Assembly: GCA_965223665.1 (NCBI GenBank)
Contig: OZ245011.1
Coordinates: forward strand, 3,072,001 to 3,136,000
From: Nitrospinaceae bacterium
GTDB taxonomy: Bacteria; Nitrospinota; Nitrospinia; Nitrospinales; Nitrospinaceae
Direction of reading: 5' to 3'
Length of the DNA: 64,000 nt
Shown here: piece by piece, positions 1-63,252 of the stretch
Layout: every line of letters begins with the position of its first letter
Position numbering within the stretch: the first letter of the stretch is position 1
Notes under the pieces: model-generated
Database searches by the model: none
What the model was told of the DNA's origin: nothing
What the model saw: the letters and a program-made list of their open reading frames with translations, nothing else
Made by a program: the position numbers and the translations under genes

Positions 1-503
1 TTTACCCATCCTTGGACTAAGTTGATTCCATCTGCATTTAAAATGACTGCATTTGTCCCAATAGTTCCGGGAGAAATTGTGCCTAAAATAATACTCCCAA
101 GGTTGGACGCAATATCACTATAAATCACTCCACTCTCAGTCCAAGCTGTGTCCACGGAATAGATTTCATAGGGACCAGAGCTGGTATCAAACAGGTCCAG
201 GGTGATAGTTGCAGATTGCACTGTTGCACCGGAAGGTATTGCTGAAATATCCCATTGGATCACAGAGACGACTTCACCAAATAGCCCATTGCTCGGATCT
301 TGGTCTACCCCATCAGCGCTCAAAAAAGTTTCGCTACCAAAGTTATTGGCGGGGGAGGTTTGTCGAAGAAAAGAATCCTGAGTTCCTGAGTAACTGCCAT
401 TTGGTAAAGCTCCATCCTGAAATTCCAAAGTGGTTTGAGCGAAACTTAATGAGTTTAAAAAAATAGAAAACAAAAAAAAGGATGCAGAAAGAATTTTCTT
501 CAC
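1..503 (-). CDS. Secreted protein with DNRLRE/CBM96-like domain (5' part only; runs off window start)
   Basis: Not in ORF track. Manual translation from GTG at 503 is open to the window edge: MKKILSASFFLFSIFLNSLSFA (signal peptide) QTTLEFQDGALPNGSYSGTQDSFLRQTSPANNFG...IQWDISAIPSGATVQSATITL...AWTESGV...NLVQGWV. Confidence 0.7.
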   Translation of the reverse strand, partial: MKKILSASFFLFSIFLNSLSFAQTTLEFQDGALPNGSYSGTQDSFLRQTSPANNFGSETFLSADGVDQDPSNGLFGEVVSVIQWDISAIPSGATVQSATITLDLFDTSSGPYEIYSVDTAWTESGVIYSDIASNLGSIILGTISPGTIGTNAVILNADGINLVQGWV

Positions 504-588
504 GAAACCCCCTTTTGGGTGAAATATTTTGCGTGGAGAATAGAATATTTAACCAACATTTGGAATAATAAATACCCCATATGGGCTA

Positions 589-616
589 AAAATAGCAAAA
601 TAGACTTTTATGTCAA
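589..616 (-). promoter_or_regulatory. Putative sigma-70 promoter for the DNRLRE-domain gene
   Basis: TTGACA-16nt-TATTTT with extended TG on the minus strand. Confidence 0.45.
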
Positions 617-889
617 GTAATTTTGTGTAAAAAATATTTCCTAAAAGTTGATGGAAAAGGGTTTATTATCCAAACTTTTTCCAAATAAAATTTTAAAGTT
701 TTTATTTATATGGAGTTAGGGATATGAAAGCCCTTTATACGAAACTATCTAATGAAAATTTTTTTTAAAAAAATTAGAATAATTTTCTAGGTCTCAATCA
801 TTCGAGAACAAGATGTAAAACGAGAAATTTCTTCAAATAGGTAAGCGTAGCTTGTTCAGGAAAAAACTTAGAATAGAAAGGGAGGATTG

Positions 890-2347
890 TTAGCGGAAAA
901 AATTTTCGCGATCAAAGGGTTGTTGTAAATCCATTTTTTGCAGGTATGCTTGAATTTCTTTTTTATAGGAAACAAAAGGATCGAGCATCAAAAATGGTTC
1001 TTCTTTATTGAGTCTGAAACCAATCCAATCAATTAAGTAACCTGTTTGACTTTGGAGTAAAGTTCTCACTAGTTCTCCACGTCCGTCGGCACGGGTTCCC
1101 TTGGGAGGAGTCGATTTGGAATAGTTAATTGCTGCATCTGTAGTAAGACGAAATGAATCTCCATTTTCTTCTAATCCCCAGTAGAGGCCTTGTGATTTAT
1201 TCAGGTTATGAAATTCTAGATCTAAACTTCTAATCCATGGATCCTTCCAGGATAAGTTTTCGTCTTTCATAAATTCCGAAAGCATCCAGTATTTACTAGC
1301 CCAATCCACTCGTCCTAACAATGCTTCGGGTCCTTTCGGAAGGTCGGTAAGGACAGATTCCCAAGCCTCTAATACCCAATTAATGTCACGGGATTTTCCT
1401 GTTAGATGTTCTTTCGCAGTATTTAATATATCCCATTGCAAGTCAAGAGCTGTTCCTGTATTCCCATCTCGAAATTCAACATTCCATTTAAAACTTTGAT
1501 CTCTGGAAATATCTCTCATAGTGGATACTGAATCGAGTAATATCCAATCGGGATTGGCAACACCCAATTCAATCAATTCCATCATCACTGCAGTGGATCC
1601 CATTTTTAATGCGTTTGCAAATTCACTCATATTGGAATCCCCTACCAGCAAATGTATGCGACGATATTTGCTTGGGTCTGATAACGGTTCATCCCGTGTA
1701 TTTACAATAGCCCGATTGTACTGAACCCATCGATAAAATTCATTTGGAATATGATCCGCGCGTTGAGAGATTTGGAAATTGACTTCTTCAGCATCCTTTC
1801 GAGCCTGATGGATATCGTCCCAATCTCTAAAAGGTTGAGGATTACAAGCTCCGGTTCTTCCGGCTCCTGCATATATTTGCCGAGTGACCAAAAACGCTGC
1901 AAGTAATCTTAAGTTTTCCCGGTTATCGAATTGAAATGCTCGGCTAACTAAATAATTTTCATGGCAGCCAAATGTGGCATTAGTTTCCAGGTCGACATTA
2001 TTTTTGATAAAAGCTACTTGATCCGCCCAACCTAATTCTTCTAATGCACATTGAATGATTTCATCACCTGCACGGTCTAAGGTCACTAAGTCCACCAGGT
2101 TAGAACATTCGGGGGAGGCGTATTCTAAATGTCCCATATCAAGATAAATCCGACCCCCATTTGCAAGAAACCCTCCATTACCAGGTGGTTCATCATTTGC
2201 ACGATAATGAAGATCAAGAACTCCTTGTTTTTGATCAAATATGTGGTTCTTTACCCGGACGGCTACATCTATTGCGCCATATTTAAAATCGTCTTCTTTA
2301 ATAAGAAGACCGTATTCCGTTTCAATTCCGTATATTCGTTTATCCAT
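890..2347 (-). CDS. pafA: Pup/UBact-protein ligase (PafA family)
   Basis: GIETEYG, NGGRIYLDMGHLEYASPEC, KNNVD, TFGCHENYL, SQRAD, NTRDEP, RRIHLLVGDSNMS motifs; last gene of the proteasome operon. Confidence 0.93.
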   Translation of the reverse strand: MDKRIYGIETEYGLLIKEDDFKYGAIDVAVRVKNHIFDQKQGVLDLHYRANDEPPGNGGFLANGGRIYLDMGHLEYASPECSNLVDLVTLDRAGDEIIQCALEELGWADQVAFIKNNVDLETNATFGCHENYLVSRAFQFDNRENLRLLAAFLVTRQIYAGAGRTGACNPQPFRDWDDIHQARKDAEEVNFQISQRADHIPNEFYRWVQYNRAIVNTRDEPLSDPSKYRRIHLLVGDSNMSEFANALKMGSTAVMMELIELGVANPDWILLDSVSTMRDISRDQSFKWNVEFRDGNTGTALDLQWDILNTAKEHLTGKSRDINWVLEAWESVLTDLPKGPEALLGRVDWASKYWMLSEFMKDENLSWKDPWIRSLDLEFHNLNKSQGLYWGLEENGDSFRLTTDAAINYSKSTPPKGTRADGRGELVRTLLQSQTGYLIDWIGFRLNKEEPFLMLDPFVSYKKEIQAYLQKMDLQQPFDRENFFR

Positions 2348-2356
2348 TTTAAAAAA

Positions 2357-3109
2357 CTAAAAAGCGGTTTTTAATTCATCGATTTCATTAGATGTAAGGG
2401 CTCGGTACAATGTTTTTCGTTGTGAACTGTAATTTAGGATTGCACCTTCAAATTCCCATTGTTTAAAAGCTTCTTTCAGAGTCGAGGGCAATTGGTCTTT
2501 ATCATCCTCTTCGTCTTCACTACTTTTGTTTTGTTGTTTTCCCTTTTCCCACAAAACGCATCCTTCTTGCAAGGCTTTTTTAAGAGAAAAAGAAGTAAAG
2601 TCCATTTCATTTATTTTCTCTTGAATAACTTTTGTCTCCGTTTCAATTCCGGAAATCACAGAACCTTTATGAAATGTCTCCCAGTGCCCATCATAATTGA
2701 GCCGAATAAATTGCGGTTTATTTTGAAAGTCAATTTCTACCAGTAGTAATTTCACCAAATAGGGAGCCCGCATCACTTCTTCAAAGTTTTGTTTCAAAGC
2801 TGGGGCAATTCCAAACTGTAAAAGACGAGTTAAAGTAACGTCTTTTTCTGATCTATTAAAACCTTCCAAGTGGGCTAAGTCCAATAAATTCATTCTTAAT
2901 CGTTCCACATCTGCAGGATGACCCATGCCACCTAAGGCAATACGATCATAAATTTCAAAGACTTTTCCTGGTTGGGGTGTGAATCCGAATATGACGGCGC
3001 CTTCATTAAAGGGAACAGCAATAACAGGCTGTCCTTTTGCTAGTTTTTCTTGAACATAACTATGACGGGTGGAAATTGCTTCCATCCAGCGGAATGGTTC
3101 TTCAAACAT
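2357..3109 (-). CDS. prcA: 20S proteasome alpha subunit
   Basis: KVFEIYDRIALGGMGHPADVERLR, PYLVKLLLVE, RLNYDG motifs of bacterial PrcA; directly follows prcB. Confidence 0.9.
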   Translation of the reverse strand: MFEEPFRWMEAISTRHSYVQEKLAKGQPVIAVPFNEGAVIFGFTPQPGKVFEIYDRIALGGMGHPADVERLRMNLLDLAHLEGFNRSEKDVTLTRLLQFGIAPALKQNFEEVMRAPYLVKLLLVEIDFQNKPQFIRLNYDGHWETFHKGSVISGIETETKVIQEKINEMDFTSFSLKKALQEGCVLWEKGKQQNKSSEDEEDDKDQLPSTLKEAFKQWEFEGAILNYSSQRKTLYRALTSNEIDELKTAF

Positions 3110-3110
3110 A

Positions 3111-3911
3111 TCAATTCCTTTGTACGGACTCGCGGTATAGATCTTCTAATTCAGTTTCAGTAAGAAATCGATATCCTTGGTCGGTAATACTGGCAATGAT
3201 GGGAAATATTTTTTCCTCAGGGCGAGCTTTTCCGGTTGCGGTATCGAATTGGGCTGCTGTTTGTAATAATCGAATAGCTAACTTGCAAGCATCAGGAAAT
3301 TCTCTTTCACTTAATTCCTTTTTCCCCCACAAGTTCTCGTGTTCCATGATTCCACGAATGATGGGGGAACCCGATCCGGTTGCAGTGTGAGTTTTTATTT
3401 CGAACTGTGCTCCTAAAATATCATAAAAGTAAATAAAAGGTTTTTGGGTTGCAATGTCAAATGCGGCAAAGATAGGACTCACCGTACCCACTCCTTGGAT
3501 AGCCAATCCCATGTTCTCCTTCAATAGTTTTGAAAGAGCGCGAATTTTTCCTTCAGTGCTCAAAGGTTGGAGCTGAGATCTGCGATAATATTCAAAATTA
3601 TGGGAAAGGACACGAGCCATTTCAAACGCAGTTGCCGGAACCCCGGCAATAGCCATTAATGAATAATCATCTATGGGAATTACCTTATCGCAATATTCGT
3701 ACATAATTGCATTGCCGGCAGTGGCACGTCGGTCTCCTGCAATTAAAACACCACCTTTAAAGTGAAATGCTAAAACGGTAGTTCCATGGATTAATTCAGA
3801 CTTATTTAATCCATTGGAATGGTCTACAAGGTTTGGCCATTGGTAACCTGATTTTTGCAGCAGGTCGATAAAATCTCCTGGACCGTAGTTTTCAAATGAA
3901 GGTTGGTTCAT
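3111..3911 (-). CDS. prcB: 20S proteasome beta subunit with propeptide
   Basis: Propeptide followed by HG/TTVLA catalytic Thr site, AGDRRATAGN, ATGSGS, DTATG. Confidence 0.95.
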   Translation of the reverse strand: MNQPSFENYGPGDFIDLLQKSGYQWPNLVDHSNGLNKSELIHGTTVLAFHFKGGVLIAGDRRATAGNAIMYEYCDKVIPIDDYSLMAIAGVPATAFEMARVLSHNFEYYRRSQLQPLSTEGKIRALSKLLKENMGLAIQGVGTVSPIFAAFDIATQKPFIYFYDILGAQFEIKTHTATGSGSPIIRGIMEHENLWGKKELSEREFPDACKLAIRLLQTAAQFDTATGKARPEEKIFPIIASITDQGYRFLTETELEDLYRESVQRN

Positions 3912-4084
3912 TGCCCGGTTCGTTGTTTATATTTTTCAGATTGTTTGGGATCCACGCGCTTCATTCGTTTTAAAATATTATCTTTTCCAGGGCGGGATAC
4001 ATCCGGCCGACTGGGTCCACTATCTTTTCGGTCAGGGGTCGAATCTTTTTTTTCCTCCCGCCGCATCGGATCATTCATTTCCAT
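3908..4084 (-). CDS. ubact: UBact (Pup-analogous bacterial ubiquitin-like modifier), 58 aa
   Basis: Not in ORF track. Manual translation: MEMNDPMRREEKKDSTPDRKDSGPSRPDVSRPGKDNILKRMKRVDPKQSEKYKQRTGQ*. AAGGAG SD upstream, start inside dop 3' end, stop overlaps prcB start (ATGA); occupies the pup position. Confidence 0.93.
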   Translation of the reverse strand: MEMNDPMRREEKKDSTPDRKDSGPSRPDVSRPGKDNILKRMKRVDPKQSEKYKQRTGQ

Positions 4085-5568
4085 GCGTATTGCTCCTTAT
4101 AAGAATCAAGGGTTTGATCAACATCTTTTTTTTCGATTACATCTGTTAAATCTAAATATTCACCGTTTAAAAATTCAATTTTGGTCCAATGGATTGATTG
4201 TACATTTTCTTTATCATTTTTTACAAAGTTTCCCCGAATTTTAGCTCGTGTGTTATTCGGAGGCTCTTGAATTGCTTTTTGAACTTCAGACTCTGGGATT
4301 AAGGATAGAATTTCATTTTGCTGCATCAAGCCGTAAAACAGGCCTCGTTCTGGATCTAAATTATGGTATTCCAAATCCAGACTTTGCATAATAGGATCTT
4401 CCCAGTTAACTCCCTCCGATTCCATAAAATCATTAAATATATTTCGCTTTATGGCCCAATCAATCCTGTTTGATAAGCGATCAGGATCTTCCTTTAAATC
4501 ATTTAAAGTCCTTGCCCATTCATCAGTGACCCATTTCCATTCTTCTGCATTTTCAAATAAACTTTTATGTTTAATAGCTTGTTCTAAATATGACTCCTGA
4601 ATTTCCAACGGTGTGATTGTGCCTCCTGTGATTTTCTTTAATGGAATGCTTCCTGAAATATCCCTTGAAACTTGTTTTACATCCCAAACCGGATCTTCCA
4701 ATTCTACAGGGGGAGGCAGTACCTCAGCTCCAATCATAGCTAATACTAAACGAGTTGTTCCTATTTTTAATGCGGTCGCGTAAGGGGACATATTGGCATC
4801 CCCCAGGATTAAATGCAAGCGTCTATATTTTTCCTGATTTGAATGTGGTTCGTCTCTTGTATTGATGATTGGCCGTTTAGTCATGGTTTCAATACTGAGA
4901 ATGGTTTCAACAAAATCTGCTCTTTGAGACAATTGAAATCCCTGGGATAAAGATTCTCCTGGAATTTCAGATCCTACTTTACCTGCTCCGGCAAATAATT
5001 GACGAGTGACTAAGAATGGAACTAAAAATTGAACCCAGTAATCAAATGGCTGTCTACGTGAAATTAAATAATTATCATGAGTCCCATAACTATGACCACT
5101 ATAGTCAGTATTATTCTTAAATACTTGTAGGTAATTACCCCCCAAATCTCTATTTCGTAATCGCACACATTCTGCAATAATCCGCTCACCTGCAAGGTCG
5201 TGTGTCACTAACTCAAAAACAGATTGGCATTCAGGGGTACTGTATTCGGGGTGGGTATGATCATTGTAAAATCGAGCTCCATTTGTTAATACTCTGTCAC
5301 ATTTCATTTCTCGATATGTATAAGGACGAATTTTATCCTGCTCACAAAACTCTTCCTCTTCCTCGTCTTGTGCCAATCGAGAAACTTGAAAACCGCGCAT
5401 ATCTGTATGGGTTCGCTCTTTATCATATGCCCAAGAATCTTGAACACTTTTTAATTCACAGCGACGTAAAAGTTCCATAGATTCTTCAACGGGATCCGAA
5501 GAATCTTGATCTTCCCTGATAATTCCAAACTCAGTTTCTATTCCCATTAAGGGAACAATTTTACTCAT
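4075..5568 (-). CDS. dop: Deamidase/depupylase Dop
   Basis: MGIETEFGI, LTNGARFYNDHTHPEYSTPEC, KNNTD..GHSYGTHDNYL, INTRDEPH, RRLHLILGDANMS. Confidence 0.92.
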   Translation of the reverse strand: MSKIVPLMGIETEFGIIREDQDSSDPVEESMELLRRCELKSVQDSWAYDKERTHTDMRGFQVSRLAQDEEEEEFCEQDKIRPYTYREMKCDRVLTNGARFYNDHTHPEYSTPECQSVFELVTHDLAGERIIAECVRLRNRDLGGNYLQVFKNNTDYSGHSYGTHDNYLISRRQPFDYWVQFLVPFLVTRQLFAGAGKVGSEIPGESLSQGFQLSQRADFVETILSIETMTKRPIINTRDEPHSNQEKYRRLHLILGDANMSPYATALKIGTTRLVLAMIGAEVLPPPVELEDPVWDVKQVSRDISGSIPLKKITGGTITPLEIQESYLEQAIKHKSLFENAEEWKWVTDEWARTLNDLKEDPDRLSNRIDWAIKRNIFNDFMESEGVNWEDPIMQSLDLEYHNLDPERGLFYGLMQQNEILSLIPESEVQKAIQEPPNNTRAKIRGNFVKNDKENVQSIHWTKIEFLNGEYLDLTDVIEKKDVDQTLDSYKEQYAWK

Positions 5569-7184
5569 ATAATCGACCGATTGATGGTATGAGAAGCAGC
5601 TTGATCTGAATCATTTGGACGACGTAATCTAGCAACATTTTTAGGATCAAAGTCCAATAATTGGAGCCAATCTTCCATATTTGAATCTGTAGGAAGGACA
5701 CTATTTTCCTTAAACTCTACTTTCAGAGCATTCATTAAATCATCTACCTTTAAAATTAGAGGTTCGCCTTTGATTGCCCTTTCAATGGCGATTTCTTTGG
5801 CTCGCAATACAATGCCCTCTAAAATAGCTCCGGATATAAAATCTTTCCAAAATAGTTTTTTAAGCTCTCCGCTGCGCATAGTCAAAATGACTGCTTCCTG
5901 TTCAGGATTTCGAGAAAATAATTGGTCGAGGAAGGGTTGAATAAATTCTTGTATATCTTCTTTTTCAAAGGGAAGACTTTCTTTAAGGTAAACTTTAAGA
6001 ATCGATTCACAATCTTCTCTATTAGGGCGGCTTACTTTAATTTTGCGGTCGATTCTGCCCGGTCGCAGAATTGCAGGATCAATTAGGTCAGGCCTGTTGG
6101 TTGCTAATATCACAACAGTATCTTGTATGGACTCAATTCCATCCATTTCAGCACAAAACATTGGAACTAGCGTATTTGAAATATTATTTCCGCGCCAGGC
6201 CTGCCGGGTACCTAAGACGGACTCCGCCTCATCAATAAAAATAAAGGGCATGTGGCCTTTTTCTTTATAATCTTTAGCTCGTTTAAAAATTTCTCTAACT
6301 TTACGTTCGGATTCTCCCAACCACATATTGAGAATTTCCGGACCCTTGACATGAATAAATTGCCCTTGTAAATCGCTATGTTTCCCCCCTTTTTCTTTAA
6401 GTTTGGCAATAATATCTGAAAGTATGGCTTTCCCTATCAAAGTTTTGCCACAACCTGGGGGTCCATAAAATAAGAATCCCTTGGGCATCCGGTATTCCAT
6501 TTTGTCGAGAATTTCTTGGTGAAGGATAGGATATTCAATAACCTTGCGGACTTCTTCAATGACATTGTCCTGACCTCCAACGCGGTCCCAAGTGATAGGA
6601 TTGAACTCATCCTCAACAGCAGACTTAGACTGTCTTTTGGGTAATCGCTTAAGAATGACTTTTTGGGTAGGATCAAGGATAACCTCATCTCCCTCCCGCA
6701 TGGGATCTTCTTTAAGCTCATCACATACCTGAACCATTGACTCAGAATTACTACCTGCAGAAACTAACCATTGACCATCGGCTAGTCGACAAACTATTTT
6801 TGCAAGGGGGCCTTGATCAGGACGCGGCAGTTTAGCAATGGCAACAAACCCTTCATTTACTGCAACTTGATCTCCTACCTTTAAAGGCTCATTTTCTATA
6901 ATTTCAGGAGAAACTGCTGCTTGATACTCGGTTCCTGCTACATTCAACCGAATTAAATCATCTTCTCCAGGGCCTAAAACCGTTCCGATCCGATGAGCGG
7001 GTAATTTTAGCTTACGGATCGTTTCTTCAAGGGTTTTCATTTTTAGGGCATACTGCTGTGCGGCCTGTTGGGATTGAAGCAGGGCATCCCTTATATCAAA
7101 AATTTTTTCTTGGAGTTCAGGTTTGTCAGACGTTTCATCTAATATCTGATCTATTAATTCTATAATATGGGTCGGATCTCCCAT
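5565..7184 (-). CDS. arc: Proteasome-associated AAA ATPase (ARC/Mpa)
   Basis: N-terminal coiled coil, two OB-like segments, Walker A GPPGCGKT, KGPEILNMWLGESER, Walker B IFIDEAE, ATNRPDLIDPAILRPGRIDRKI; ATGA overlap with dop. Confidence 0.93.
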   Translation of the reverse strand: MGDPTHIIELIDQILDETSDKPELQEKIFDIRDALLQSQQAAQQYALKMKTLEETIRKLKLPAHRIGTVLGPGEDDLIRLNVAGTEYQAAVSPEIIENEPLKVGDQVAVNEGFVAIAKLPRPDQGPLAKIVCRLADGQWLVSAGSNSESMVQVCDELKEDPMREGDEVILDPTQKVILKRLPKRQSKSAVEDEFNPITWDRVGGQDNVIEEVRKVIEYPILHQEILDKMEYRMPKGFLFYGPPGCGKTLIGKAILSDIIAKLKEKGGKHSDLQGQFIHVKGPEILNMWLGESERKVREIFKRAKDYKEKGHMPFIFIDEAESVLGTRQAWRGNNISNTLVPMFCAEMDGIESIQDTVVILATNRPDLIDPAILRPGRIDRKIKVSRPNREDCESILKVYLKESLPFEKEDIQEFIQPFLDQLFSRNPEQEAVILTMRSGELKKLFWKDFISGAILEGIVLRAKEIAIERAIKGEPLILKVDDLMNALKVEFKENSVLPTDSNMEDWLQLLDFDPKNVARLRRPNDSDQAASHTINRSII

Positions 7185-7214
7185 AATGAATCCTTTTTTA
7201 GTGGATAATTATCA

Positions 7215-7244
7215 ATTGTATGATTAATTTTTCGAATAAATCAA
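7215..7244 (-). promoter_or_regulatory. Putative sigma-70 promoter of the arc operon
   Basis: TTGATT-18nt-TACAAT about 30 nt upstream of arc ATG. Confidence 0.35.
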
Positions 7245-7480
7245 GTGGTTTCCCCATCGATTTATTGGCCGTAAACTCCCAAATTTTGGGATATTTCAAA
7301 ATTTATTAGGTTTAACCTTTTGTTCATAAGGGTTTGTAATGTTAGGATATATTATTCTACTCCGTCAAATATTTGGTGGCGGTTTGGTTAATTTTTCCGG
7401 ACAATTCTGTTCGTTTTTGCTACCAAATTAGGATACCAAAGTTTTGGCTAATCTGTGAATAATACCTAGAGAAAATATAA

Positions 7481-8773
7481 ATGAAGGTCAATAATAAATC
7501 GCTGATTGATAAGTGTATCATTAGCTTCAGTCATGACCAATATGAGTCACGGGTAGCCGCAGATCGATTTTCCATTGAAAAGGCCCAAAAAGAAATAGCG
7601 CAAAATAAAAAAGGAATCAGTCATTTAATTTTACGAGCGCGGGATGACAAAATTGATCGACTAAAATTCCTGTTTCTTATTCATGGTATTCCCCTCATGT
7701 GTTACTCCTTGGGAAATCTTATTTTATCTAGTCTTAAAGAAATTGTTGTTGTTGGTTCGCAAGAAGTAAAAACCATATTGGATTTATTCCTTCAATGTAT
7801 AGATACAAAAGGAAAAAAAATTCATTTTGTTCATGAAGACCCGGATAATTTAATGCTGATTAACACCATGATATTAGGAAGAAATGTATTATCACTTTCT
7901 CCTAATGAATTGGTCCTTTTCCAACCCGGCGACCTTCCTTTTATGTTCAATTTGGAAAAAGTAATTCAAGACAAAGATATTAAGAATCACAATCTCATTC
8001 TTTGGTTGAATTCAAGGGAAGAAATGTTTCCAAGATACCATGAAGATCCGAATAGAGAGTTTGTTCAAAGGAATTATCATTATCGAATTATTGATGAAAA
8101 GACGAATCGATTGCACGATTTAAAAGAACCGAACGTTTATCCTATTAATTTAGGTGCTATTGAAGAAGATATCATTGAGTTGTTACATCAAACTCGAAAA
8201 GATGGGAAAATTATATATGCCGGATTGAACAAAGCTTTGAAACAACCGGCTCGAATGTTACGGTTGTTACCTATTTTGGCAAATCATTTTAGACATTTTG
8301 AATCAGATTTAAAAAAATTCAGGATGAATGATGATTATAAATTTGGAATGCACAGAAAAAACTTTAATCAAGGAGCATCGATTTTGCTGGATACCAAATG
8401 TGTTGCCAAATTAAATGATGATCCTGCCTATGTTTCGGATGTAGATGCCTTGGAAGATTGGGAAGACTTTGAGTCATTGATTTCCTTTGCAAAAGACTTA
8501 CATGGGGAGGAGGGATTATGTTGGGTTCACCCATTTGGGAAAGAATTATTAAAGTTTAAAAAGGAAGCCATGCCCCAGCTTAAAAAACATATTCCAATGT
8601 ATAAAAACTTTTCTGAATATTTAGGGAATATTTATCGTTCTTTAGAAATGAAATACATTCCTTTTAATAGTAAAGAGCAATTCGATGTTCCTCACAAAAA
8701 TCAACATTCCATCGAAATGGCTTACCAATGGTACTCAGACCATACACGAAATTTTATGAGGAAATCGGCTTAA
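7481..8773 (+). CDS. Divergent nucleotidyltransferase-fold (MobA/NTP_transf_3-like) protein
   Basis: KFLFLIHGIPLMCYSL...KEIVVVG, LFQPGDLPF, DVDALED motifs; canonical LAAG motif not seen. Confidence 0.6.
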   Translation: MKVNNKSLIDKCIISFSHDQYESRVAADRFSIEKAQKEIAQNKKGISHLILRARDDKIDRLKFLFLIHGIPLMCYSLGNLILSSLKEIVVVGSQEVKTILDLFLQCIDTKGKKIHFVHEDPDNLMLINTMILGRNVLSLSPNELVLFQPGDLPFMFNLEKVIQDKDIKNHNLILWLNSREEMFPRYHEDPNREFVQRNYHYRIIDEKTNRLHDLKEPNVYPINLGAIEEDIIELLHQTRKDGKIIYAGLNKALKQPARMLRLLPILANHFRHFESDLKKFRMNDDYKFGMHRKNFNQGASILLDTKCVAKLNDDPAYVSDVDALEDWEDFESLISFAKDLHGEEGLCWVHPFGKELLKFKKEAMPQLKKHIPMYKNFSEYLGNIYRSLEMKYIPFNSKEQFDVPHKNQHSIEMAYQWYSDHTRNFMRKSA

Positions 8774-8828
8774 AGAAACCTGTTTGTATTAGTGAGTTGA
8801 TGGTCAAGAACTTGATGGCGAGATATTA

Positions 8829-9866
8829 ATGGAATTTTTGAAAAACATTCAAAAAATGATGATGCGGCTTAAACCTGGTTTTGCTTCTTCATCAGTATTT
8901 GCCACTCCCAAACATGTTGCGGTGCGTCCCCGGTTTTTTGAAATTGCTCAAAGTGCCAATTTAAAACCTTTTGTATTATTATCTATTGCTGTCCATCTTA
9001 TTGTAATAATCCTGCATTTATATGTCCCCCTCGATTCTGAAAAAAAGGAGGCTTCTCCACCTATCAAAGTTAAATATGTTCCGCCTCCCAAAGAAGAAAA
9101 CAAACCATCGACATTAATTGATGCCCCTAAACCCAAAAAAATTGAGAAACCGAGGTCGACCGAGTTATTGTCAAGTTTTGATAGCCGAGCGCATTCCAAC
9201 CGAAAGCCGTCCAGTAAAAAAGTCTATAGAAATAAAAAAACTATTGTTCCTAAGGTAAGTGGAATGACTCCGATTCCAAGAAAGAAAATAGAGATTCCTC
9301 AGAAAAAATATTATCCACCTCCTAAAAAGAAAACTATTAAAAAAGAATTTAAGCAGGCTAAAACAGGATTTATTACTTCCCCTCCACAAAAGGAGATTCC
9401 CAAGAAAAAGCCAATAACTAAAACAGTTCCAGGTGGAACGATGTCATTCTTGGATGGCTTTGACCCAGAAAAATATGCATCTTTAGATACGAAATCTCCA
9501 GAGGACCTGTTTCAGGATGACGACCAACCGATTTCATTGGATACAAAAGAAGAAAAGTATGCGAGTTATTTTGCCCGCATTAAACACCAAATAGAACGGG
9601 TTTGGGTTTATCCGGATCAAGCAGCCCGAAAGGGAATCAGTGGAAAATTATCTTTAAAATTTCGTATTAGCAGAGATGGAAATCTATTGGAAGTAAGATT
9701 AGTTGATTCATCTGGTTCCAACCTATTAGATGATGCGGCAATTAATGCTGTCAAAGGGGCTTCTCCCTATTATCCATTCCCTGTGACAATCGAAAGAGAC
9801 GATCTTTCCATTCTCGCTACCTTTATCTACAGTCCTTCATATAAAGCCCAATACCAAGCGCGCTAA
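8829..9866 (+). CDS. TonB family energy transducer
   Basis: TM segment with SIAVH motif, Pro/Lys-rich linker, C-terminal WVYPDQAARKGISG...FRISRDG...SSGSNLLDDAA. Confidence 0.88.
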   Translation: MEFLKNIQKMMMRLKPGFASSSVFATPKHVAVRPRFFEIAQSANLKPFVLLSIAVHLIVIILHLYVPLDSEKKEASPPIKVKYVPPPKEENKPSTLIDAPKPKKIEKPRSTELLSSFDSRAHSNRKPSSKKVYRNKKTIVPKVSGMTPIPRKKIEIPQKKYYPPPKKKTIKKEFKQAKTGFITSPPQKEIPKKKPITKTVPGGTMSFLDGFDPEKYASLDTKSPEDLFQDDDQPISLDTKEEKYASYFARIKHQIERVWVYPDQAARKGISGKLSLKFRISRDGNLLEVRLVDSSGSNLLDDAAINAVKGASPYYPFPVTIERDDLSILATFIYSPSYKAQYQAR

Positions 9867-19886: not shown

Positions 19887-20507
19887 TTATAGATTCAAAG
19901 ATTGCAATTTTTTAAATGCAGGTCCCTGTTTTGCAGAATCTTTACCTTCTCGGGAAGCGAAATTATTATCCATATAGAGAGCCACTAAGTTGGGCAATTT
20001 TTTGGAACAAGAAAGTGCTAATAAACCCTCATCCCCAATTTCATTTTGCGCCAGGTCGATTTCTTCGATCAACTCTAGGGTATTTTCATTTGCCAGGATT
20101 TTAGCACCTTCGTCTTTTAAATAATTTCTATAGAGGTTCAAAGTTTTTACTTTTTTAAGAATGGGTGATTTGACTACTGCCCGTATTCCATTGGGACCTA
20201 AATCATTTCCCCCAAGTTCTAACCAATTAATCTTGGCAAAAACTTCATTTTCAGAAAGAAAATGAGCCCCTGCATCCCCGATTTTGTTACCGCCTAAATT
20301 AAGTCGCTTTAAATTAACAATACGTTCATCTTCAGCAATGGTTTTTAATCCATTCACGCCTACGCAACAACCTTTTAAATTCAATTCCCGGCCATTTGGA
20401 GAAATTTGATCATCCACGATTTTTTTCATCGCTTCAATCAATCTTTCACCTGTATAATTACAGGGCTCAGCGGTGTCGTAAATGCGATACCCACTTAATG
20501 ACGGCAT
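19887..20507 (-). CDS. Leucine-rich repeat protein (RI-like/GALA-type)
   Basis: Repeats of LxxLxLxxNxIGDxG at about 28-aa period. Confidence 0.85.
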   Translation of the reverse strand: MPSLSGYRIYDTAEPCNYTGERLIEAMKKIVDDQISPNGRELNLKGCCVGVNGLKTIAEDERIVNLKRLNLGGNKIGDAGAHFLSENEVFAKINWLELGGNDLGPNGIRAVVKSPILKKVKTLNLYRNYLKDEGAKILANENTLELIEEIDLAQNEIGDEGLLALSCSKKLPNLVALYMDNNFASREGKDSAKQGPAFKKLQSLNL

Positions 20508-49350: not shown

Positions 49351-51765
49351 TTAATTGAGATGACTAACAGAAGGTTGTTTTCTTGCCCTAGATTTAGTTA
49401 ATGATTTTTTGGTTTTTTTTGTAGAAGATTTTTTCTTGAAAGTAAATTTTTTCGTAAAACTATTCTGGACTACTTCATCCATGGAGTTGACTTGAATAAA
49501 GTTTAGAGTTTTGCGAACATTAGCAGGAATGTCGGGAATATCTTTTTCGTTGTCTTTTGGAATCATGACATTCTTAATGTTAACTCGATGCGCAGCCAAC
49601 GCTTTTTCTTTTAATCCTCCAATTGGTAATACTTTTCCGGTGAGGGTCACTTCCCCAGTCATCGTAATATCGCTACGCACGGGATTTTTAGTTAAAGCGG
49701 AAATGATTGCCACCGCCATAGTAATTCCAGCGGAGGGCCCATCTTTAGGAATAGCTCCTTCGGGAATATGAATGTGAAGATCAATTTTTTGATAGAAGTC
49801 TTTAGGCAATCCCAGGGAATCTGAATGTTGTCGAACATAACTTAGCGCAGCTTGCGCCGACTCTTTCATGACATCACCTAACTTCCCAGTCAACGATAAC
49901 TGGCCTTTGCCAGGAGTGGTGATAACTTCAATTGAAAGTAGTTCCCCTCCAAACTCCGTCCAGGCTAAGCCGTTAGCTACGCCAATTTCTGATTCATTTC
50001 TTTCTTTATCAGGGGAAAATTTTTGTACACCTAAATATTTTTGAACAAGGGTTGGCGTAAGCGAGATAGAGGTTTTTTTCCCATTTTTAACTACTTCTTT
50101 CGCAACCTTTCTACAAATTCCTCCAATTTCTCTTTCCAGACTGCGCACACCGGCTTCACGCGTGTACTCTTTAATAACTTTACGCAAAATGATTTTAGAG
50201 AATTTTACATTTTTTGAAGTCAATCCATGTTCCTTAATTTTTTTAGGTACCAGAAACTTTTCCGCAATGGAAAGTTTTTCTTCTTCCGTATAACCCGGAA
50301 GCCGAATGACTTCCATTCGGTCTTGAAGGGGTTGCGGGATTGTATGCAATACATTTGCAGTGCAAATGAAAAGGACTTGGGATAAATCGTAGTCTACTTC
50401 TAGAAAATGATCGTTGAAGGCAAAATTTTGTTCGGGATCTAAAACTTCTAGCAAGGCGGAAGAAGGATCTCCACGAAAATCTGTACTCATTTTATCAACT
50501 TCATCTAAAAGAAAAACTGGGTTAAGAGATCCCGCCTTCTTCATGCTTTGAATGATTTTTCCCGGTAAGGCGCCAATATAGGTCCTTCGATGACCTCTAA
50601 TTTCTGCTTCGTCGCGTACGCCTCCTAAAGAAACTCTAACAAATTTACGTCCCATTGCCCGAGCAATAGACTGCCCTAAAGAGGTTTTACCTACACCCGG
50701 CGGACCCACTAGACAAAGGATGGGACCTTTCATTTTTTTTACTAACTTCATGACAGCAAGGTGTTCGACAATGCGTTCTTTAACTTTCTCTAAGCCAAAA
50801 TGATCGGAATCCAAAACTTTTTGAGCGTCATTTAAGTCAATGTTGTCGCCCCCCTGGCTCTTTTTCCAAGGCAATTCAACAAGCCACTCAATGTAATTGC
50901 GCACCACAGTTGCTTCTGCAGACATGGGTTGCATGGCTTCCAGTCGGCGGATTTCTTTGTTAGCTTTTTCAACAATATCCTTAGGCATTTTGGCTTTTTT
51001 GAGTTTTTGCGTCAACTCATCAATATCAGATTTAAACTCATCACGTTTGCCTAGTTCTTTCTGAATGGCCTTCATTTGTTCGTTGAGATAAAATTCTTTT
51101 TGGCTACGCTCCATTTGTTTGCGTACTCGGCCATGAACCCGCTTTTCTATTTTTAAAATTTCCATCTCGGACTTCAGAATGTTGACTAGCTTATTCAAAC
51201 GGTCCGAGGGATTATAGGTTTCCAGCAAACTTTGCTTGTCCGCAGTTTGAAAAATCATGTAAGAAGCAATCGTGTCTGCAAATCGATGTGGTTCAGTAAT
51301 GTTTGAAATTGCTGAAATGGCTTCTAACGGGATTTTTTGATTAAGTTTGACATATTGTTCAAATAACCCTTCAATACTTCGCATTAAAGCTTTAACGTCA
51401 GCAGTTAATTGAATATTTTCTTCAATTTTATCGATTTCAACTTCGTAATATCCTGATTGATTTTGAAATTTGGTAATGCGGCCACGTTGCATTCCTTCAA
51501 CTAAGACCTTCATCGTACCATCGGTGAGTTTAAGGATTTGAAGAATATTGGCTAGCGTACCGGTTTCAAAAATATCGTTTGGACTGGGATTATTATTATT
51601 GGCATTTCTTTGAGCAGAAAGAAAAATGTTTTTCTGCTCTGCCATGGATTTTTCCAAAGCCCGGACAGACTTATCCCTACCTACGAATAAAGGTATTACC
51701 ATGAAGGGAAAAACTACAATATCGCGCAGTGGGACTAAGGGTAATACTAACCTATCAGAAGACAT
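49351..51765 (-). CDS. lon: ATP-dependent protease Lon
   Basis: [39 protein letters not shown] catalytic Ser, IGGLKEK. Confidence 0.98.
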
Positions 51766-51768
51766 GGA

Positions 51769-53016
51769 TTAACTCGCCTGTTTTTGATTTTGGAAAACTA
51801 GAAGAGGCTGTTCATTGTGGATAACGACTTCTTCATTAATTACAACTTCCTCGACATCTTCTTTGGAGGGTAAATCAAACATGATGTCTAACATAATATC
51901 TTCTAATATGGAACGAAGACCGCGAGCACCTGTTTTTAGTTTAAGTGCTTTTTCTGCAATGGCACGAATGGCTCCGTCGGTGAATTTGAGTTTAACGTTT
52001 TCAAACTCGAAAAGTTTTTTGTATTGTTTTACAAGTGCATTTTTAGGTTCGGAAACAACTTTTACGAGTGCGTCAGCATCCAACTCATTTAGTGTAGCGG
52101 TAATAGATAAACGACCTACAAATTCTGGGATTAAACCATATTTCAAAAGGTCTTCAGGTTGTACCTGTTGTAAAAGAATTTCATCATTTTCTTTGGATCG
52201 AGAAACCAACTCTTGGCCAAACCCCATCGATTTCTTTCCAATTCTATTCCGAATTATTTTGTCAAGCCCGACAAACGCGCCACCACAAATGAATAAAATG
52301 TTGGTAGTATTGACTTGTAAGAATTCTTGGTGCGGGTGTTTTCTTCCTCCTTGAGGAGGCACACTGGCCATAGTTCCTTCAATTATTTTTAAAAGTGCCT
52401 GTTGAACACCTTCACCAGAAACGTCTCTTGTAATTGAGGGATTCTCAGATTTTCGACTGATTTTATCTACTTCATCAATATAGATTATCCCTCGCTCAGC
52501 TTTTTCTACATCGTAATCAGCAGCTTGTAATAATTTTAGGATAATATTTTCTACATCTTCACCTACATATCCCGCTTCAGTCAAAGTAGTCGCATCTACA
52601 ATAGTAAAAGGGACGTCGAGGATTTTTGCTAACGTTTGTGCCATTAGCGTTTTACCTGAACCCGTTGGTCCAATCAGCAAAACATTACTTTTTTGTAATT
52701 CAACATCTTCCAAATCTACATTTGAATCTACTCGTTTGTAATGATTATGAACAGCAACGGAAAGAATTCTTTTGCAGCGCTCTTGCCCAATGATGTACTG
52801 ATCCAGATGCTTAAAAATATCTTTAGGTTTTAGGAGGTGTCTAAAATCCTGGCTTTTTTCTTGAGCCCATTCTTCGACCATGATTTCATTACAAAGTTCA
52901 ATACACTCATCACAAATATAAACAGTGGGTCCAGCGATTAATTTTTTAACTTCTTCTTGGCTTTTCCCGCAAAAGGAACAACGGTAGTTTCCAGTGTTCG
53001 AACTTTTTTTAGCCAT
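51769..53016 (-). CDS. clpX: ATP-dependent Clp protease ATP-binding subunit ClpX
   Basis: CSFCGK...ICDECIELC zinc finger, [18 protein letters not shown]; start at MAKKS after GGAGG. Confidence 0.98.
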
Positions 53017-53063
53017 TAAATCCTCCAAGTCAATTAGATTAAAATATCAATCTAATCTTAGAT

Positions 53064-60217: not shown

Positions 60218-61132
60218 TTAATTTCCAATTTCGATTATAGCTTTACGGCCTTGGTAAGAAAATATGGCGCGTTCGGGATCAATTTGTTTGAGGGTTGCTC
60301 CCAAAACATTCTCCCCTACTCTTAACTTTTGGTTTCGTTCTGAAGATGTTGAATAAAAAATATAATTAGAGGGATTGTCTTCTCCAAAGAAAATAATTCC
60401 ACGTAATTGAAAGTCCGGCAGGGATGAAACTGCTTCCATATTTGGAAATGTTTCTTCTTCAACCTGCGCCATTCTTTTTGCTTTTTCAATTGCTTCATTT
60501 AATTCTTCATCAATTTCTTCTTCCACTTCTTCTTCTACCGGTAAAAGTTCAGACTCCACGGGTTGAACCGCTGCAACAATAGTTTCATTAGCTTCATTTT
60601 GATTTTGAATTGGGTCTTCCTCTGGGATTACGGGGACAGGTTTAGGGGTTTCCTGAACAATTTGAATAGGTTGGTTTTCTTCCTTAGGGGAAGTATCTAA
60701 AACTTTTTTCTGGTTTTCAGGAGATTTTGAAATTTCTTCTTTTTTTATAGGTTGAACTTTTTTAACCTGTGAACTTTTTAAGGGATATCCAGTTTCTTCT
60801 TCCTGGATACTGGACATAGCAATTCCATTGTAAATAGGTTTTGAAGAAAAGGTTTGTGGGATCTTTTTAATAATTGGTTTCATTGGAGTTAAAGTAAGTT
60901 CATTGGAGGGAAGGCTTTTGATTTTTGGTAGTATCCAAAAAAAGACGGATATTCCAATTACTATACTTCCGGAAATAAAACCTAAAACCCATATCCAACG
61001 TTTTACTTTATCCTTCGATAAATAATTTCCATCTCCACTATCGTGAACCAATAGGTCTTGCAGATCGAGATTTTTTTCCAAGAGGCTTTTTTCTTCCTCC
61101 AATTTTTTTAGTGATTTTAAAATAGTACTCAT
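60218..61132 (-). CDS. GspB/ExeB-like type II secretion accessory protein
   Basis: MSTILKSLKKLEEEK N-terminus, TM helix, disordered linker, C-terminal LRVGE...ATLKQIDPERAIF; ATGA-coupled to the ExeA gene. Confidence 0.75.
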   Translation of the reverse strand: MSTILKSLKKLEEEKSLLEKNLDLQDLLVHDSGDGNYLSKDKVKRWIWVLGFISGSIVIGISVFFWILPKIKSLPSNELTLTPMKPIIKKIPQTFSSKPIYNGIAMSSIQEEETGYPLKSSQVKKVQPIKKEEISKSPENQKKVLDTSPKEENQPIQIVQETPKPVPVIPEEDPIQNQNEANETIVAAVQPVESELLPVEEEVEEEIDEELNEAIEKAKRMAQVEEETFPNMEAVSSLPDFQLRGIIFFGEDNPSNYIFYSTSSERNQKLRVGENVLGATLKQIDPERAIFSYQGRKAIIEIGN

Positions 61133-63252
61133 CGACGTACTAATGTAGGGGTTGGATATATATTTAAAAGACTATACAACATTATTTTACTTTCAGTATT
61201 AAACCGACCATCATCTTTTATGTTATAGAATCGTTGGAATTTTGCAACGGCGTCCTTTGTTTTTTTTCCGTAATTAGTAGCTTCTCTTCCCTGAAAAAAT
61301 CCCAATAGCCTGAGGTTTTTTTGTAACCAAATGGATTCTTTCCCTTCATGACCTAATTCCAAAACTCCCGGTAGATTTTCAAAATCCTGCCATACAATTG
61401 AAACCCTATGATTCAATAATGGTTCAATAGTAGATAATGGAATTTCAAGTTTATCGACCGATCCAAAAATACCGTTTGAGCCCTGGATGGAGATTAAAGC
61501 CATGTACTTTGTCCCCTGAGCATTTGGTAAGTTTACCTCTAAAATAGCAGGGTAATTTAATGTAGTTAAATGCTTAATTGTTCCATTCATATCAAAAATG
61601 GAAAGCCCAAAAGCTTCCTCCAATTCGGAAGGATCTAAATTGGAAGCAGTGCGAATTTCCTCTGAAGCAATGTCCCAGCTTTGAAGAATCCATTTAAGAG
61701 CCTCCACTCGGCTCTCTTCTAATGTCAGACTGGATAAGTAGGTAACCAGTTTGTCGGTCTTGGATAAGCGCAAAAGGTCTAATGAAACTCTTTGCGCCGG
61801 GGTCCCCGGTTCCTTAGAAATTGTTTCAACGGCAGTAGGTGCTGGAACAAAGTTTTCTTTTTGAGGTTTGCTTTGAAATGCGTAAGATTTTGTTCCAGGT
61901 TTTTGGTCAGGGATTAATTCTTCATCTTTGTCTGACAGACCACTAGCTTGAACCAGTTGTTTTAGTTTTCTCCCAAAAAGCTCATCCGAAGAAAAGTTGA
62001 AATCCACCAAATAATGTAAGCCCACCAATACAATTGCGGCAGCTGCTACTGCAGAACCAATTACTTTTCCAAAAACTCCCCATCCATTTGGTTTGTAAGC
62101 GGTGCCTCCTATATCTTTTGCAGCAAGCTTTACAATTTTTGGTGTAATTCGTTTTGTGTTTTTTGTATATGCTATTAATAATGCCCGGTCTGCCAGGACG
62201 TTAATCATTCTAGGAATTCCCTGTGTCATTTTGTAAATCCAATCGCAAGCTGCGGGTTCAAAAAACACTCGTCCTTTGCCGCCAGCAACATTTAGTCTAT
62301 GCTGTACATATCCACGGGTCTCTCTTTTATTGAGAGGTAGTAATTTCCATTGAATGGTGATACGTTGCCGTAACTGTCGCAATTTGGTTTGGCGCAATAC
62401 ATCATCTAATTCAGGCTGTCCAATTAGAATGATATGAATTAATTTTTCAGTATCTGTTTCCAAATTTGAAAGTAACCTTAATTCCTCTAAAATAGAGGAA
62501 CTCAGGTTTTGAGCTTCGTCAATTATTACTGCGACCCGATGACCTAGTTTGCGTTTCTGTAGCAGGAACTGATTCAAATCATGTAAAAGATCTCTCTTGT
62601 TTCGTCGTTCACTTTTGAGCCCAAATTCAGAGTTTATGGACTGCAATAAATCAAGTGAACTGATGCATGGATGAAAAATATATGCGAAATGAAAATCGTC
62701 ACCCAGGTCTTTTAAAAAGCTTCGGCAGATAGTGGTTTTTCCAGTACCCACTTCGCCAACCACTTTCAAAAAACCATTGTTATGTTGGAGTCCAAAGACC
62801 AAGTGTGCCAATACTTCTTTGTGTTTTGCACTAAGATAAAGATATTTGGGGTCTGGGGTTAAATCAAAAGGTTTTTCTTTAAAACCAAAATAATCTAAAT
62901 ATACACTGTTATGGTTTTTCCTTTTAATTGTTTGTTCCACCTCACCTACTACTCTCTTTTTAACCTGCTTCAATGTTTCTAAAGATTCAGGAATTCCAGG
63001 TGGATCAGGAATACTCTGAGACCTGTGATAAGCCAACCGTTTGGAAGGGTTCGACAGTGTGTCATAGGCTTTTTGTATTTGTAAAATTTGTTCCCTGGAA
63101 TAATTGACCTTTTGTCCCGAGGGATTTTTTTTCTGGTCAATCGCTGAAATTCGATTTCTATAAGCAGTGGTGATTTCTTTTAATGATGATGAGGGAGGTA
63201 TCCCTAATAGATGGTAATAATCGGGATGTTGAACCTTATCCATGGTATGCAA
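61129..63252 (-). CDS. ExeA/GspA-family AAA ATPase with N-terminal J-like domain and C-terminal peptidoglycan-binding domain
   Basis: YLDYFGFKEKPFDLTPDPKYLY, GEVGTGKTT, IIDEAQNL, LIGQPEL, GIPRMIN, TM helix, WLQ..L...YG..T..AV..FQ....I..DG. Confidence 0.9.
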   Translation of the reverse strand: MHTMDKVQHPDYYHLLGIPPSSSLKEITTAYRNRISAIDQKKNPSGQKVNYSREQILQIQKAYDTLSNPSKRLAYHRSQSIPDPPGIPESLETLKQVKKRVVGEVEQTIKRKNHNSVYLDYFGFKEKPFDLTPDPKYLYLSAKHKEVLAHLVFGLQHNNGFLKVVGEVGTGKTTICRSFLKDLGDDFHFAYIFHPCISSLDLLQSINSEFGLKSERRNKRDLLHDLNQFLLQKRKLGHRVAVIIDEAQNLSSSILEELRLLSNLETDTEKLIHIILIGQPELDDVLRQTKLRQLRQRITIQWKLLPLNKRETRGYVQHRLNVAGGKGRVFFEPAACDWIYKMTQGIPRMINVLADRALLIAYTKNTKRITPKIVKLAAKDIGGTAYKPNGWGVFGKVIGSAVAAAAIVLVGLHYLVDFNFSSDELFGRKLKQLVQASGLSDKDEELIPDQKPGTKSYAFQSKPQKENFVPAPTAVETISKEPGTPAQRVSLDLLRLSKTDKLVTYLSSLTLEESRVEALKWILQSWDIASEEIRTASNLDPSELEEAFGLSIFDMNGTIKHLTTLNYPAILEVNLPNAQGTKYMALISIQGSNGIFGSVDKLEIPLSTIEPLLNHRVSIVWQDFENLPGVLELGHEGKESIWLQKNLRLLGFFQGREATNYGKKTKDAVAKFQRFYNIKDDGRFNTESKIMLYSLLNIYPTPTLVRR

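Follow-up and report, generated by a model that had tools for sequence, protein, structure and literature searches.

A complete, apparently functional UBact-proteasome locus in a Nitrospinaceae bacterium

We analyzed a stretch of 64,000 nucleotides (nt), hereafter called the window, from contig OZ245011.1 of a Nitrospinaceae bacterium (assembly GCA_965223665.1, positions 3,072,001-3,136,000). All coordinates below are window positions. Near its start, the window carries six genes predicted to encode a UBact-proteasome system, namely, a proteasomal ATPase (ARC), the two subunits of a 20S proteasome (PrcA and PrcB), the small ubiquitin-like modifier UBact, and two Pup-ligase-family enzymes (Dop-like and PafA-like) that would act on it. 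The locus is real, complete, apparently functional, and already known.

Six tightly packed genes on the minus strand

The original prediction described six minus-strand genes in the order arc-dop-modifier-prcB-prcA-pafA, and the coordinates of the open reading frames (ORFs) agree with that layout, including its overlaps and gaps, exactly to the base. The features are as follows.

5565-7184, minus strand: arc, 539 amino acids (aa), proteasomal AAA+ ATPase of the arc/mpa type
4075-5568, minus strand: dop, 497 aa, predicted Dop-like UBact deamidase/de-conjugating enzyme
3908-4084, minus strand: ubact, 58 aa, ubiquitin-like modifier ending KYKQRTGQ
3111-3911, minus strand: prcB, 266 aa, 20S proteasome beta subunit
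2357-3109, minus strand: prcA, 250 aa, 20S proteasome alpha subunit, divergent
890-2347, minus strand: pafA, 485 aa, predicted PafA-like UBact-protein ligase
7185-7480, minus strand: intergenic spacer upstream of arc, 296 nt, A+T-rich, common to the divergent gene at 7481; presumed promoter region

All six frames are intact. According to the ORF coordinates, arc and dop overlap by 4 nt and dop and ubact by 10 nt, while 1 nt separates prcB from prcA and 9 nt separate prcA from pafA. The 4-nt overlap of ubact and prcB was read directly in the DNA as CAATGA. The third codon of ubact is likewise an ATG, which shares an ATGA with the stop codon of dop, and an AGGAG lies about 8 nt upstream of the first ubact ATG; either ATG is a possible start. 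Downstream, the operon is flanked by an A+T-rich spacer of 386 nt. Within positions 1-8000, promoter-like sites (24 found, versus a mean of 21.9 in shuffles) and terminator-like sites (8 versus 6.9) were no commoner than in shuffled sequences, and thus we did not assign any promoter or operon boundary. Among the sequencing runs listed for positions 890-7184 there was no RNA run; four runs of one study carry this DNA as contigs. No second UBact, Pup-ligase, or locus was found elsewhere in the organism's own genome (4.35 Mb, 98.6% complete), which makes this a single locus.

Family assignment of the six products

The products were scanned against Pfam, with matches reported at an E value of ≤0.01, and against NCBIfam, with scores set against the curated cut-offs. 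The gene identities proposed at the outset are borne out by Pfam, NCBIfam, and PDB matches for all six products. The best NCBIfam match names the expected function in each case, and only the UBact model exceeds its own curated cut-off. In the PDB search, the closest solved structures were Corynebacterium glutamicum PafA, Acidothermus Dop, Mycobacterium tuberculosis Mpa, and 20S subunits from Rhodococcus and M. tuberculosis.

The modifier scored 73.3 bits with both NF033388 of NCBIfam (cut-off, 35) and PF20513 of Pfam (cut-off, 27.8). PF20513 was its sole Pfam family at an E value of ≤0.01, and no Pup family appeared at that threshold. The profile comparison of UBact with Pup that had been suggested as a check is thereby settled on the side of UBact. 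By analogy, the modifier would work like Pup without being a member of the Pup family.

In ARC, a helical region at the N terminus is followed by two OB domains, an AAA domain, and a tail whose last residues are NRSII (Pfam AAA, 109 bits; Prot_ATP_ID_OB_N, 33.8 bits; Prot_ATP_ID_OB_C, 39.1 bits). Its best NCBIfam match is pup_AAA (389 bits, under the cut-off of 504.75) and its best PDB matches are the Mpa entries 5kwa and 7px9 (1e-83). The two OB domains, together with an AAA domain bearing Walker A and B motifs and an aromatic pore loop, place it with Mpa/ARC.

PrcB matched Pfam Proteasome with 106.8 bits, the NCBIfam equivalog with 170 bits (under the cut-off of 192), and the Rhodococcus beta subunit 2h6j at 8e-32. 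The alignment with the mature PDB chains 1q5q_H and 2fhg_H begins at query residue 44, so that PrcB would carry a 43-residue propeptide and the mature chain would begin at Thr44. PrcA scored 23.5 bits with Pfam Proteasome, just over the cut-off of 22.4, and its sole NCBIfam match was 20S_bact_alpha (TIGR03691; 52.6 bits, under the cut-off of 139). It also matched the alpha subunits of Rhodococcus (7e-9) and M. tuberculosis (2e-7). These matches, weak but specific, point to membership in the proteasome-fold alpha subunits. PrcA bears an acidic C-terminal stretch, and its N-terminal segment is well conserved over 66 aligned sequences.

The gene order recurs in related loci

Related loci were collected with the pattern [AS][KER][RK]YRQR[TS]G[QE] from one genome per species. 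Since this pattern misses the YKQR tail of the host genus, Nitrospinota are under-sampled. At least 564 UBact loci were confirmed in species-representative genomes, and the best 80 of these come from records of Nitrospinaceae, many Nitrospira (including Ca. Nitrospira defluvii), Latescibacterota, Armatimonadota, Planctomycetota, and Gemmatimonadota. In a tblastn search with the six window proteins, 55 of the best 80 loci had all six genes on one strand in the order arc-dop-ubact-prcB-prcA-pafA; the remaining 25 are mostly shorter because contig ends cut them. Two full 16-kb loci (L066 and L079) have no arc and pafA nearby, and L079 also has no prcA. Because all six products match the expected Pfam families and the order recurs in this way, we consider that the six-gene arrangement is not due to chance.

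Within the host phylum, 94 of 120 genomes contain UBact. Among the other genomes of the host order, whose only scored families are f1-f4, the count is 93 of 101, and UBact was found in none of the 18 genomes from families f5-f9. The named relatives of the Dop product, at 62-66% identity, belong to Nitrospinaceae/Nitrospinota metagenome-assembled genomes. With the records of the best 80 loci, they agree with the earlier statement that the UBact variant comes from Gram-negative lineages. As a representative of a system that has already been catalogued and is near-universal in this lineage, the locus is ordinary.

Three Nitrospira-type loci (L025, L028, and L040) have about 1.3 kb between dop and ubact, which overlap in the window, and this spacing suggests an inserted gene. 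Divergent from arc, the window contains a 430-aa ORF without a Pfam family (7481-8773, plus strand), followed by a TonB_C domain protein (8829-9866, plus strand). Two Nitrospinaceae/Nitrospinales loci (L004 and L005) have both in synteny beside the operon, with 59-62% and 48-57% identity.

Telling the Dop-like and PafA-like enzymes apart

The assignment of the two Pup-ligase paralogues rests on scores, on an insertion, and on discriminating residues taken from Table 1 of Hecht et al. 2020 (PMC7947786). The upstream product (Pfam Pup_ligase, 518 bits) scored 424.2 bits with the NCBIfam Dop model (TIGR03688), under the cut-off of 492.3, and 377 bits with the PafA model; among PDB entries, Dop 4b0r reached 347 bits versus 252 bits for PafA. 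The spacer from the GxExE motif to the catalytic Asp measures 83 residues in this product versus 52 in the pafA product, and the former therefore has an insertion of the size of the Dop loop. This 83-residue spacer is kept in 64 of 70 Dop homologues, and the insertion is missing from all 63 PafA homologues. In addition to the insertion, the product retains D103, H104, S110, T111, and P112 as in Dop, including the His and the S-T-P residues. Judged from sequence, the upstream enzyme is clearly Dop-like.

The downstream product (Pup_ligase, 418.6 bits) scored 325.3 bits with NCBIfam PafA (TIGR03686; cut-off, 551.3). It does not have the insertion and aligns end to end with C. glutamicum PafA, and in that alignment its GxExE nucleotide-binding motif (G7-I-E9-T-E11) and its catalytic Asp in the beta-sheet cradle (D70) match those of the solved enzyme and are invariant in 63 of 63 homologues. 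Close to the Asp, Leu69, Gly72, and Ala77 are PafA-like, Ser67 is absent, and Ala74 is replaced by the Dop-like Pro79.

The UBact tail and a modelled PafA-UBact complex

A phmmer search of 1.84 billion cluster representatives returned 103 UBact relatives at an E value of ≤0.001, and 93 of them have an R[TS]G[EQ] C terminus (63 end in Gln and 30 in Glu). The window UBact, a small protein of 58 aa ending in QRTGQ, has the same type of C terminus, and its gene is flanked by the Dop-like gene and prcB, with genes for ARC, PrcA, and the PafA-like enzyme in the same locus.

We modelled the PafA-UBact complex in three runs, each protein being given as an alignment, together with three controls. The model scored 0.89 in the three runs, versus 0.00 for the best of the three controls; the 0.89 mark is reached by 58 of 80 solved complexes and by 2 of 110 mismatched pairs. 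Contact agreement between runs was at least 75%, and the predicted local distance difference test (pLDDT) value of the partner was at least 57. In the modelled interface, UBact residues 31-57 touch PafA and the UBact tail adjoins PafA residues 11, 13-17, and 70-73, that is, the active site with its GxExE motif and catalytic Asp. The model supports binding of UBact by the PafA-like enzyme.

The ubact region also stood out at the nucleotide level. Positions 3911-4120, which cover ubact and the dop/ubact junction, are 98-100% identical to a same-genus genome, whereas the dop and prcB sequences on either side reach 77-93%. Where the encoded amino acid is unchanged, 51 of 53 ubact codons are shared with that genome, versus 67-79% in the other five genes. 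This effect was weaker against one other genus (0.53 versus 0.33-0.41) and absent against three more distant loci. A structured RNA was considered and rejected, since the fold of positions 3900-4125 on the minus strand had a z score of +1.02 and 178 of 200 shuffles folded at least as well; likewise, no Rfam family reached its gathering score within positions 1-9000. The nucleotide conservation could reflect codon constraint, a recombination mosaic, or chance. Positions 3011-3280 and 5771-5920 are further islands of high identity.

Catalytic residues and purifying selection

Residue conservation was read from alignments of homologues out of the related UBact loci. Thr44, Asp60, and Lys76 of PrcB, which correspond to Thr1, Asp17, and Lys33 of the mature chain and mark it as a beta subunit, are invariant in 76 of 76 sequences. 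The Walker A (GPPGCGKT), Walker B (IDE), and pore loop (M-W-[LV]-G) motifs of ARC are invariant in 65 of 65, and Asp103 and His104 of Dop in 70 of 70. Compared with the same-genus genome (locus L084), the ratio of nonsynonymous to synonymous substitution rates (dN/dS) was 0.011 for pafA, 0.014 for arc, 0.052 for prcB, 0.054 for dop, 0.109 for prcA, and 0.129 for ubact. These values show that purifying selection acts on each of the six genes.

The genes of the operon do not all evolve at the same pace. Identity to the same-genus copy is 98% for PafA and ARC, versus 92% for Dop and 91% for PrcA; in comparisons with other genera, identities are 82-83% for PafA and 75-78% for ARC, versus 63-66% for Dop and PrcA. 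Six extracted frames from related loci contained one in-frame stop each (pafA of L006, L018, L029, and L073, arc of L007, and prcB of L067); these may be pseudogenes, sequencing errors, or artefacts of ORF extension.

The C-terminal tail of ARC

ARC tails from the related loci end in two aliphatic residues in 63 of 66 cases (II in 37, VI in 12, IV in 12, MI in 1, and VV in 1), and a Tyr-Leu ending was found in 0 of the 66. The resulting pattern for ARCs of UBact loci is [Q/S/R]-[I/V/M]-[I/V] (positions 5565-5585 in the window; L004-L083 among the related loci). The archaeal ATPase PAN docks via a hydrophobic-Tyr-X tail (PMC8142254). The conservation of the aliphatic ARC tail suggests that a docking function has been retained.

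Host context

A TonB gene had been predicted in the window, and the TonB_C domain protein beside the operon answers to it. Elsewhere, positions 61129-63252 encode a protein with AAA_22 and peptidoglycan-binding domains, an architecture that we take to be that of the type II secretion system accessory protein ExeA/GspA. Both proteins fit a diderm host. Lon protease and ClpX, the usual bacterial ATP-dependent proteases, are encoded at 49351-51765 and 51769-53028, so that they occur beside the proteasome. A 206-aa leucine-rich-repeat protein (LRR_6 and LRR_4) is encoded at 19887-20507 on the minus strand.

Discussion

Very probably, the locus is a UBact-proteasome operon that a Nitrospinota-type Gram-negative bacterium has inherited vertically and that is functional, most likely working like the actinobacterial Pup-proteasome with its steps read across by homology. 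Gene content, gene order, intact frames, catalytic residues, purifying selection, and the modelled PafA-UBact interface all support this reading. That the organism tags proteins with UBact for 20S degradation, as originally predicted, we infer from homology, the catalytic residues, purifying selection, and the PafA-UBact model; every biochemical step is inferred in the same sense, as are co-transcription, the substrates, and the physiological role.

By homology with the Pup system, UBact would be synthesized with a C-terminal Gln58, which the Dop-like enzyme would convert to Glu by deamidation. The PafA-like ligase would then use ATP to phosphorylate the side-chain carboxylate of this Glu and join it to lysines of target proteins. 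A hexameric ARC would recognize and unfold the tagged protein and feed it into the PrcA/PrcB 20S core, in which Thr44 of PrcB would become the N-terminal nucleophile once the propeptide is removed. The Dop-like enzyme may also take the tag off. The two-step chemistry of Pup is described in PMC3511204.

PMC3511204 also gives the order mpa-dop-pup-prcB-prcA-pafA for M. tuberculosis, which the window order mirrors, as the original prediction had stated. The window locus and the Pup system also have in common homologous enzymes with the same catalytic residues, a C-terminal Gln that needs to be changed to Glu, an insertion of Dop-loop size in Dop, and a propeptide-bearing beta subunit. The tail of Pup is G-G-Q, whereas the window modifier is of the UBact family and has an R-T-G-Q tail. 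The window host also differs in being a diderm that has Lon and ClpX as well. The differences in the ARC tail, in the PafA alpha-loop, and in the R-T-G-[QE] tail are, on the loci sampled, common to UBact-linked systems and not specific to the window.

Several observations weigh against a close functional match with the Pup system. Five of the six products (ARC, Dop, PrcB, PrcA, and PafA) fall under the NCBIfam equivalog cut-offs, which were trained on actinobacteria. The PafA product is barely better as a PafA than as a Dop, with 325 versus 304 bits in NCBIfam and, in the PDB, 232 bits for PafA 4b0t (residues 2-474) versus 224 bits for Dop (residues 59-426). Its alpha-loop matches only one of the nine discriminating positions of Hecht et al., His199, and differs at the other eight (PMC7947786). 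The window ARC ends in RSII and does not have the GQYL tail on which opening of the 20S gate by Mpa depends (PMC8142254). Finally, a PafA-Pup complex has already been solved (4bjr), so the score of the PafA-UBact model may reflect likeness to 4bjr. As for the alpha-loop, it is strongly conserved among the 63 PafAs of UBact loci (W207 in 61, Q209 in 61, and R212 in 63), and for this reason we regard it as a lineage-specific version and not as decay.

In one alternative, the UBact tag would be mainly a reversible regulatory mark, or ARC would mainly aid Dop in removing it, and the 20S proteasome would degrade proteins largely independently of the tag. Some actinobacteria retain pupylation genes without proteasome genes and Mpa enhances depupylation, according to PMC3511204, and even with the mycobacterial proteins, no reconstitution of wild-type Mpa with 20S has yielded robust degradation (PMC8142254). 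The missing GQYL tail of the window ARC would fit this view, as would the presence of Lon and ClpX, which would make bulk proteolysis independent of the proteasome. However, ubact lies between dop and prcB and runs into prcB with a 4-nt overlap, the six genes stand together in several phyla (55 of the best 80 loci), and the ARC tail is itself conserved, with its two aliphatic end residues in 63 of 66 loci. We therefore consider this alternative improbable.

Less likely still is that the two paralogues do not divide their labor as in actinobacteria, for example, that the "PafA" also hydrolyzes or the "Dop" also ligates. The small margin between PafA and Dop scores for the downstream gene is compatible with this idea, as are the mixed residues near its Asp (Leu69, Gly72, and Ala77 versus the Dop-like Pro79) and an alpha-loop unlike that of actinobacterial PafA; moreover, 20 substitutions turn Dop into a ligase (Hecht et al., PMC7947786). 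In contrast, the upstream gene is Dop-like by score (347 versus 252 bits), by its insertion (64 of 70), and by His104, Ser110, Thr111, and Pro112, whereas the insertion is absent from all 63 downstream homologues. Furthermore, 63 of 93 intact UBacts end in Gln and therefore need a deamidase, and the positions of the two genes match those of actinobacterial dop and pafA (PMC3511204). Hecht et al. proposed that the pathway reached Nitrospinae and other phyla by horizontal transfer (PMC7947786), but the notion that the locus is an inactive relic of such a transfer has next to no probability, being already contradicted by six intact frames, dN/dS values of 0.011-0.129, invariant catalytic residues, and the presence of UBact in 93 of 101 genomes of the order.

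Like the UBact loci of Gram-negative phyla (PF20513/NF033388), the window has a modifier over both curated cut-offs, an R-T-G-Q C terminus, the gene order of 55 of the best 80 loci, and an ARC tail of two aliphatic residues. Nothing of substance differs; the window tail is YKQRTGQ, as against YRQRTGQ in the family consensus, and the window genes are packed more tightly than those of many Nitrospira loci. Such loci of Gram-negative phyla were reportedly described by Lehmann, Udasin, Livneh, and Ciechanover in 2017 (BBRC 483:946). The archaeal PAN-20S system resembles the window locus in combining an AAA+ unfoldase with an OB domain and a Thr-protease 20S core, and NCBIfam PAN models match the window ARC at 181-197 bits and the archaeal beta model matches PrcB at 88.9 bits. 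It differs in having no Pup-ligase-family enzymes and in the Tyr-containing tail of PAN (PMC8142254).

We found no experimental study of UBact in the literature searched (UBact; pupylation and proteasome in Nitrospina/Nitrospira; PafA/Dop in gram-negative bacteria), in keeping with the earlier statement that UBact is known mainly from bioinformatics. The protein is mentioned in passing in PMC11354881, Lehmann et al. 2017 is cited in the reference list of PMC12751074, and Dop/PafA homologues in Nitrospinae were noted by Hecht et al. (PMC7947786).

We tentatively suggest, as a possibility that we do not favor, that UBact-linked ARCs dock to the 20S core via a conserved, tyrosine-free [Q/S/R]-[I/V/M]-[I/V]-COOH tail in place of the GQYL of actinobacteria or the hydrophobic-Tyr-X motif of archaea and eukaryotes, and that UBact-linked PafAs read the Arg-Thr-Gly-Glu tail with a redesigned alpha-loop (conserved Trp207, Gln209, Asn211, and Arg212). 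If this were true, the Gram-negative system would differ from pupylation in its mechanism and form a branch of its own, more than a plain copy. In that case, the fact that ubact shows hardly any synonymous change between congeneric genomes could mark an extra control of tag synthesis. The window itself provides one more clean, complete, and tightly coupled example, and a possible source of genes for reconstitution. It raises no question beyond those that come from the loci catalogued earlier, and the remaining interest lies in the biochemistry of the family. UBact-proteasome systems would mean that actinobacteria are not the only bacteria in which ubiquitin-like tags send proteins to the proteasome for degradation.

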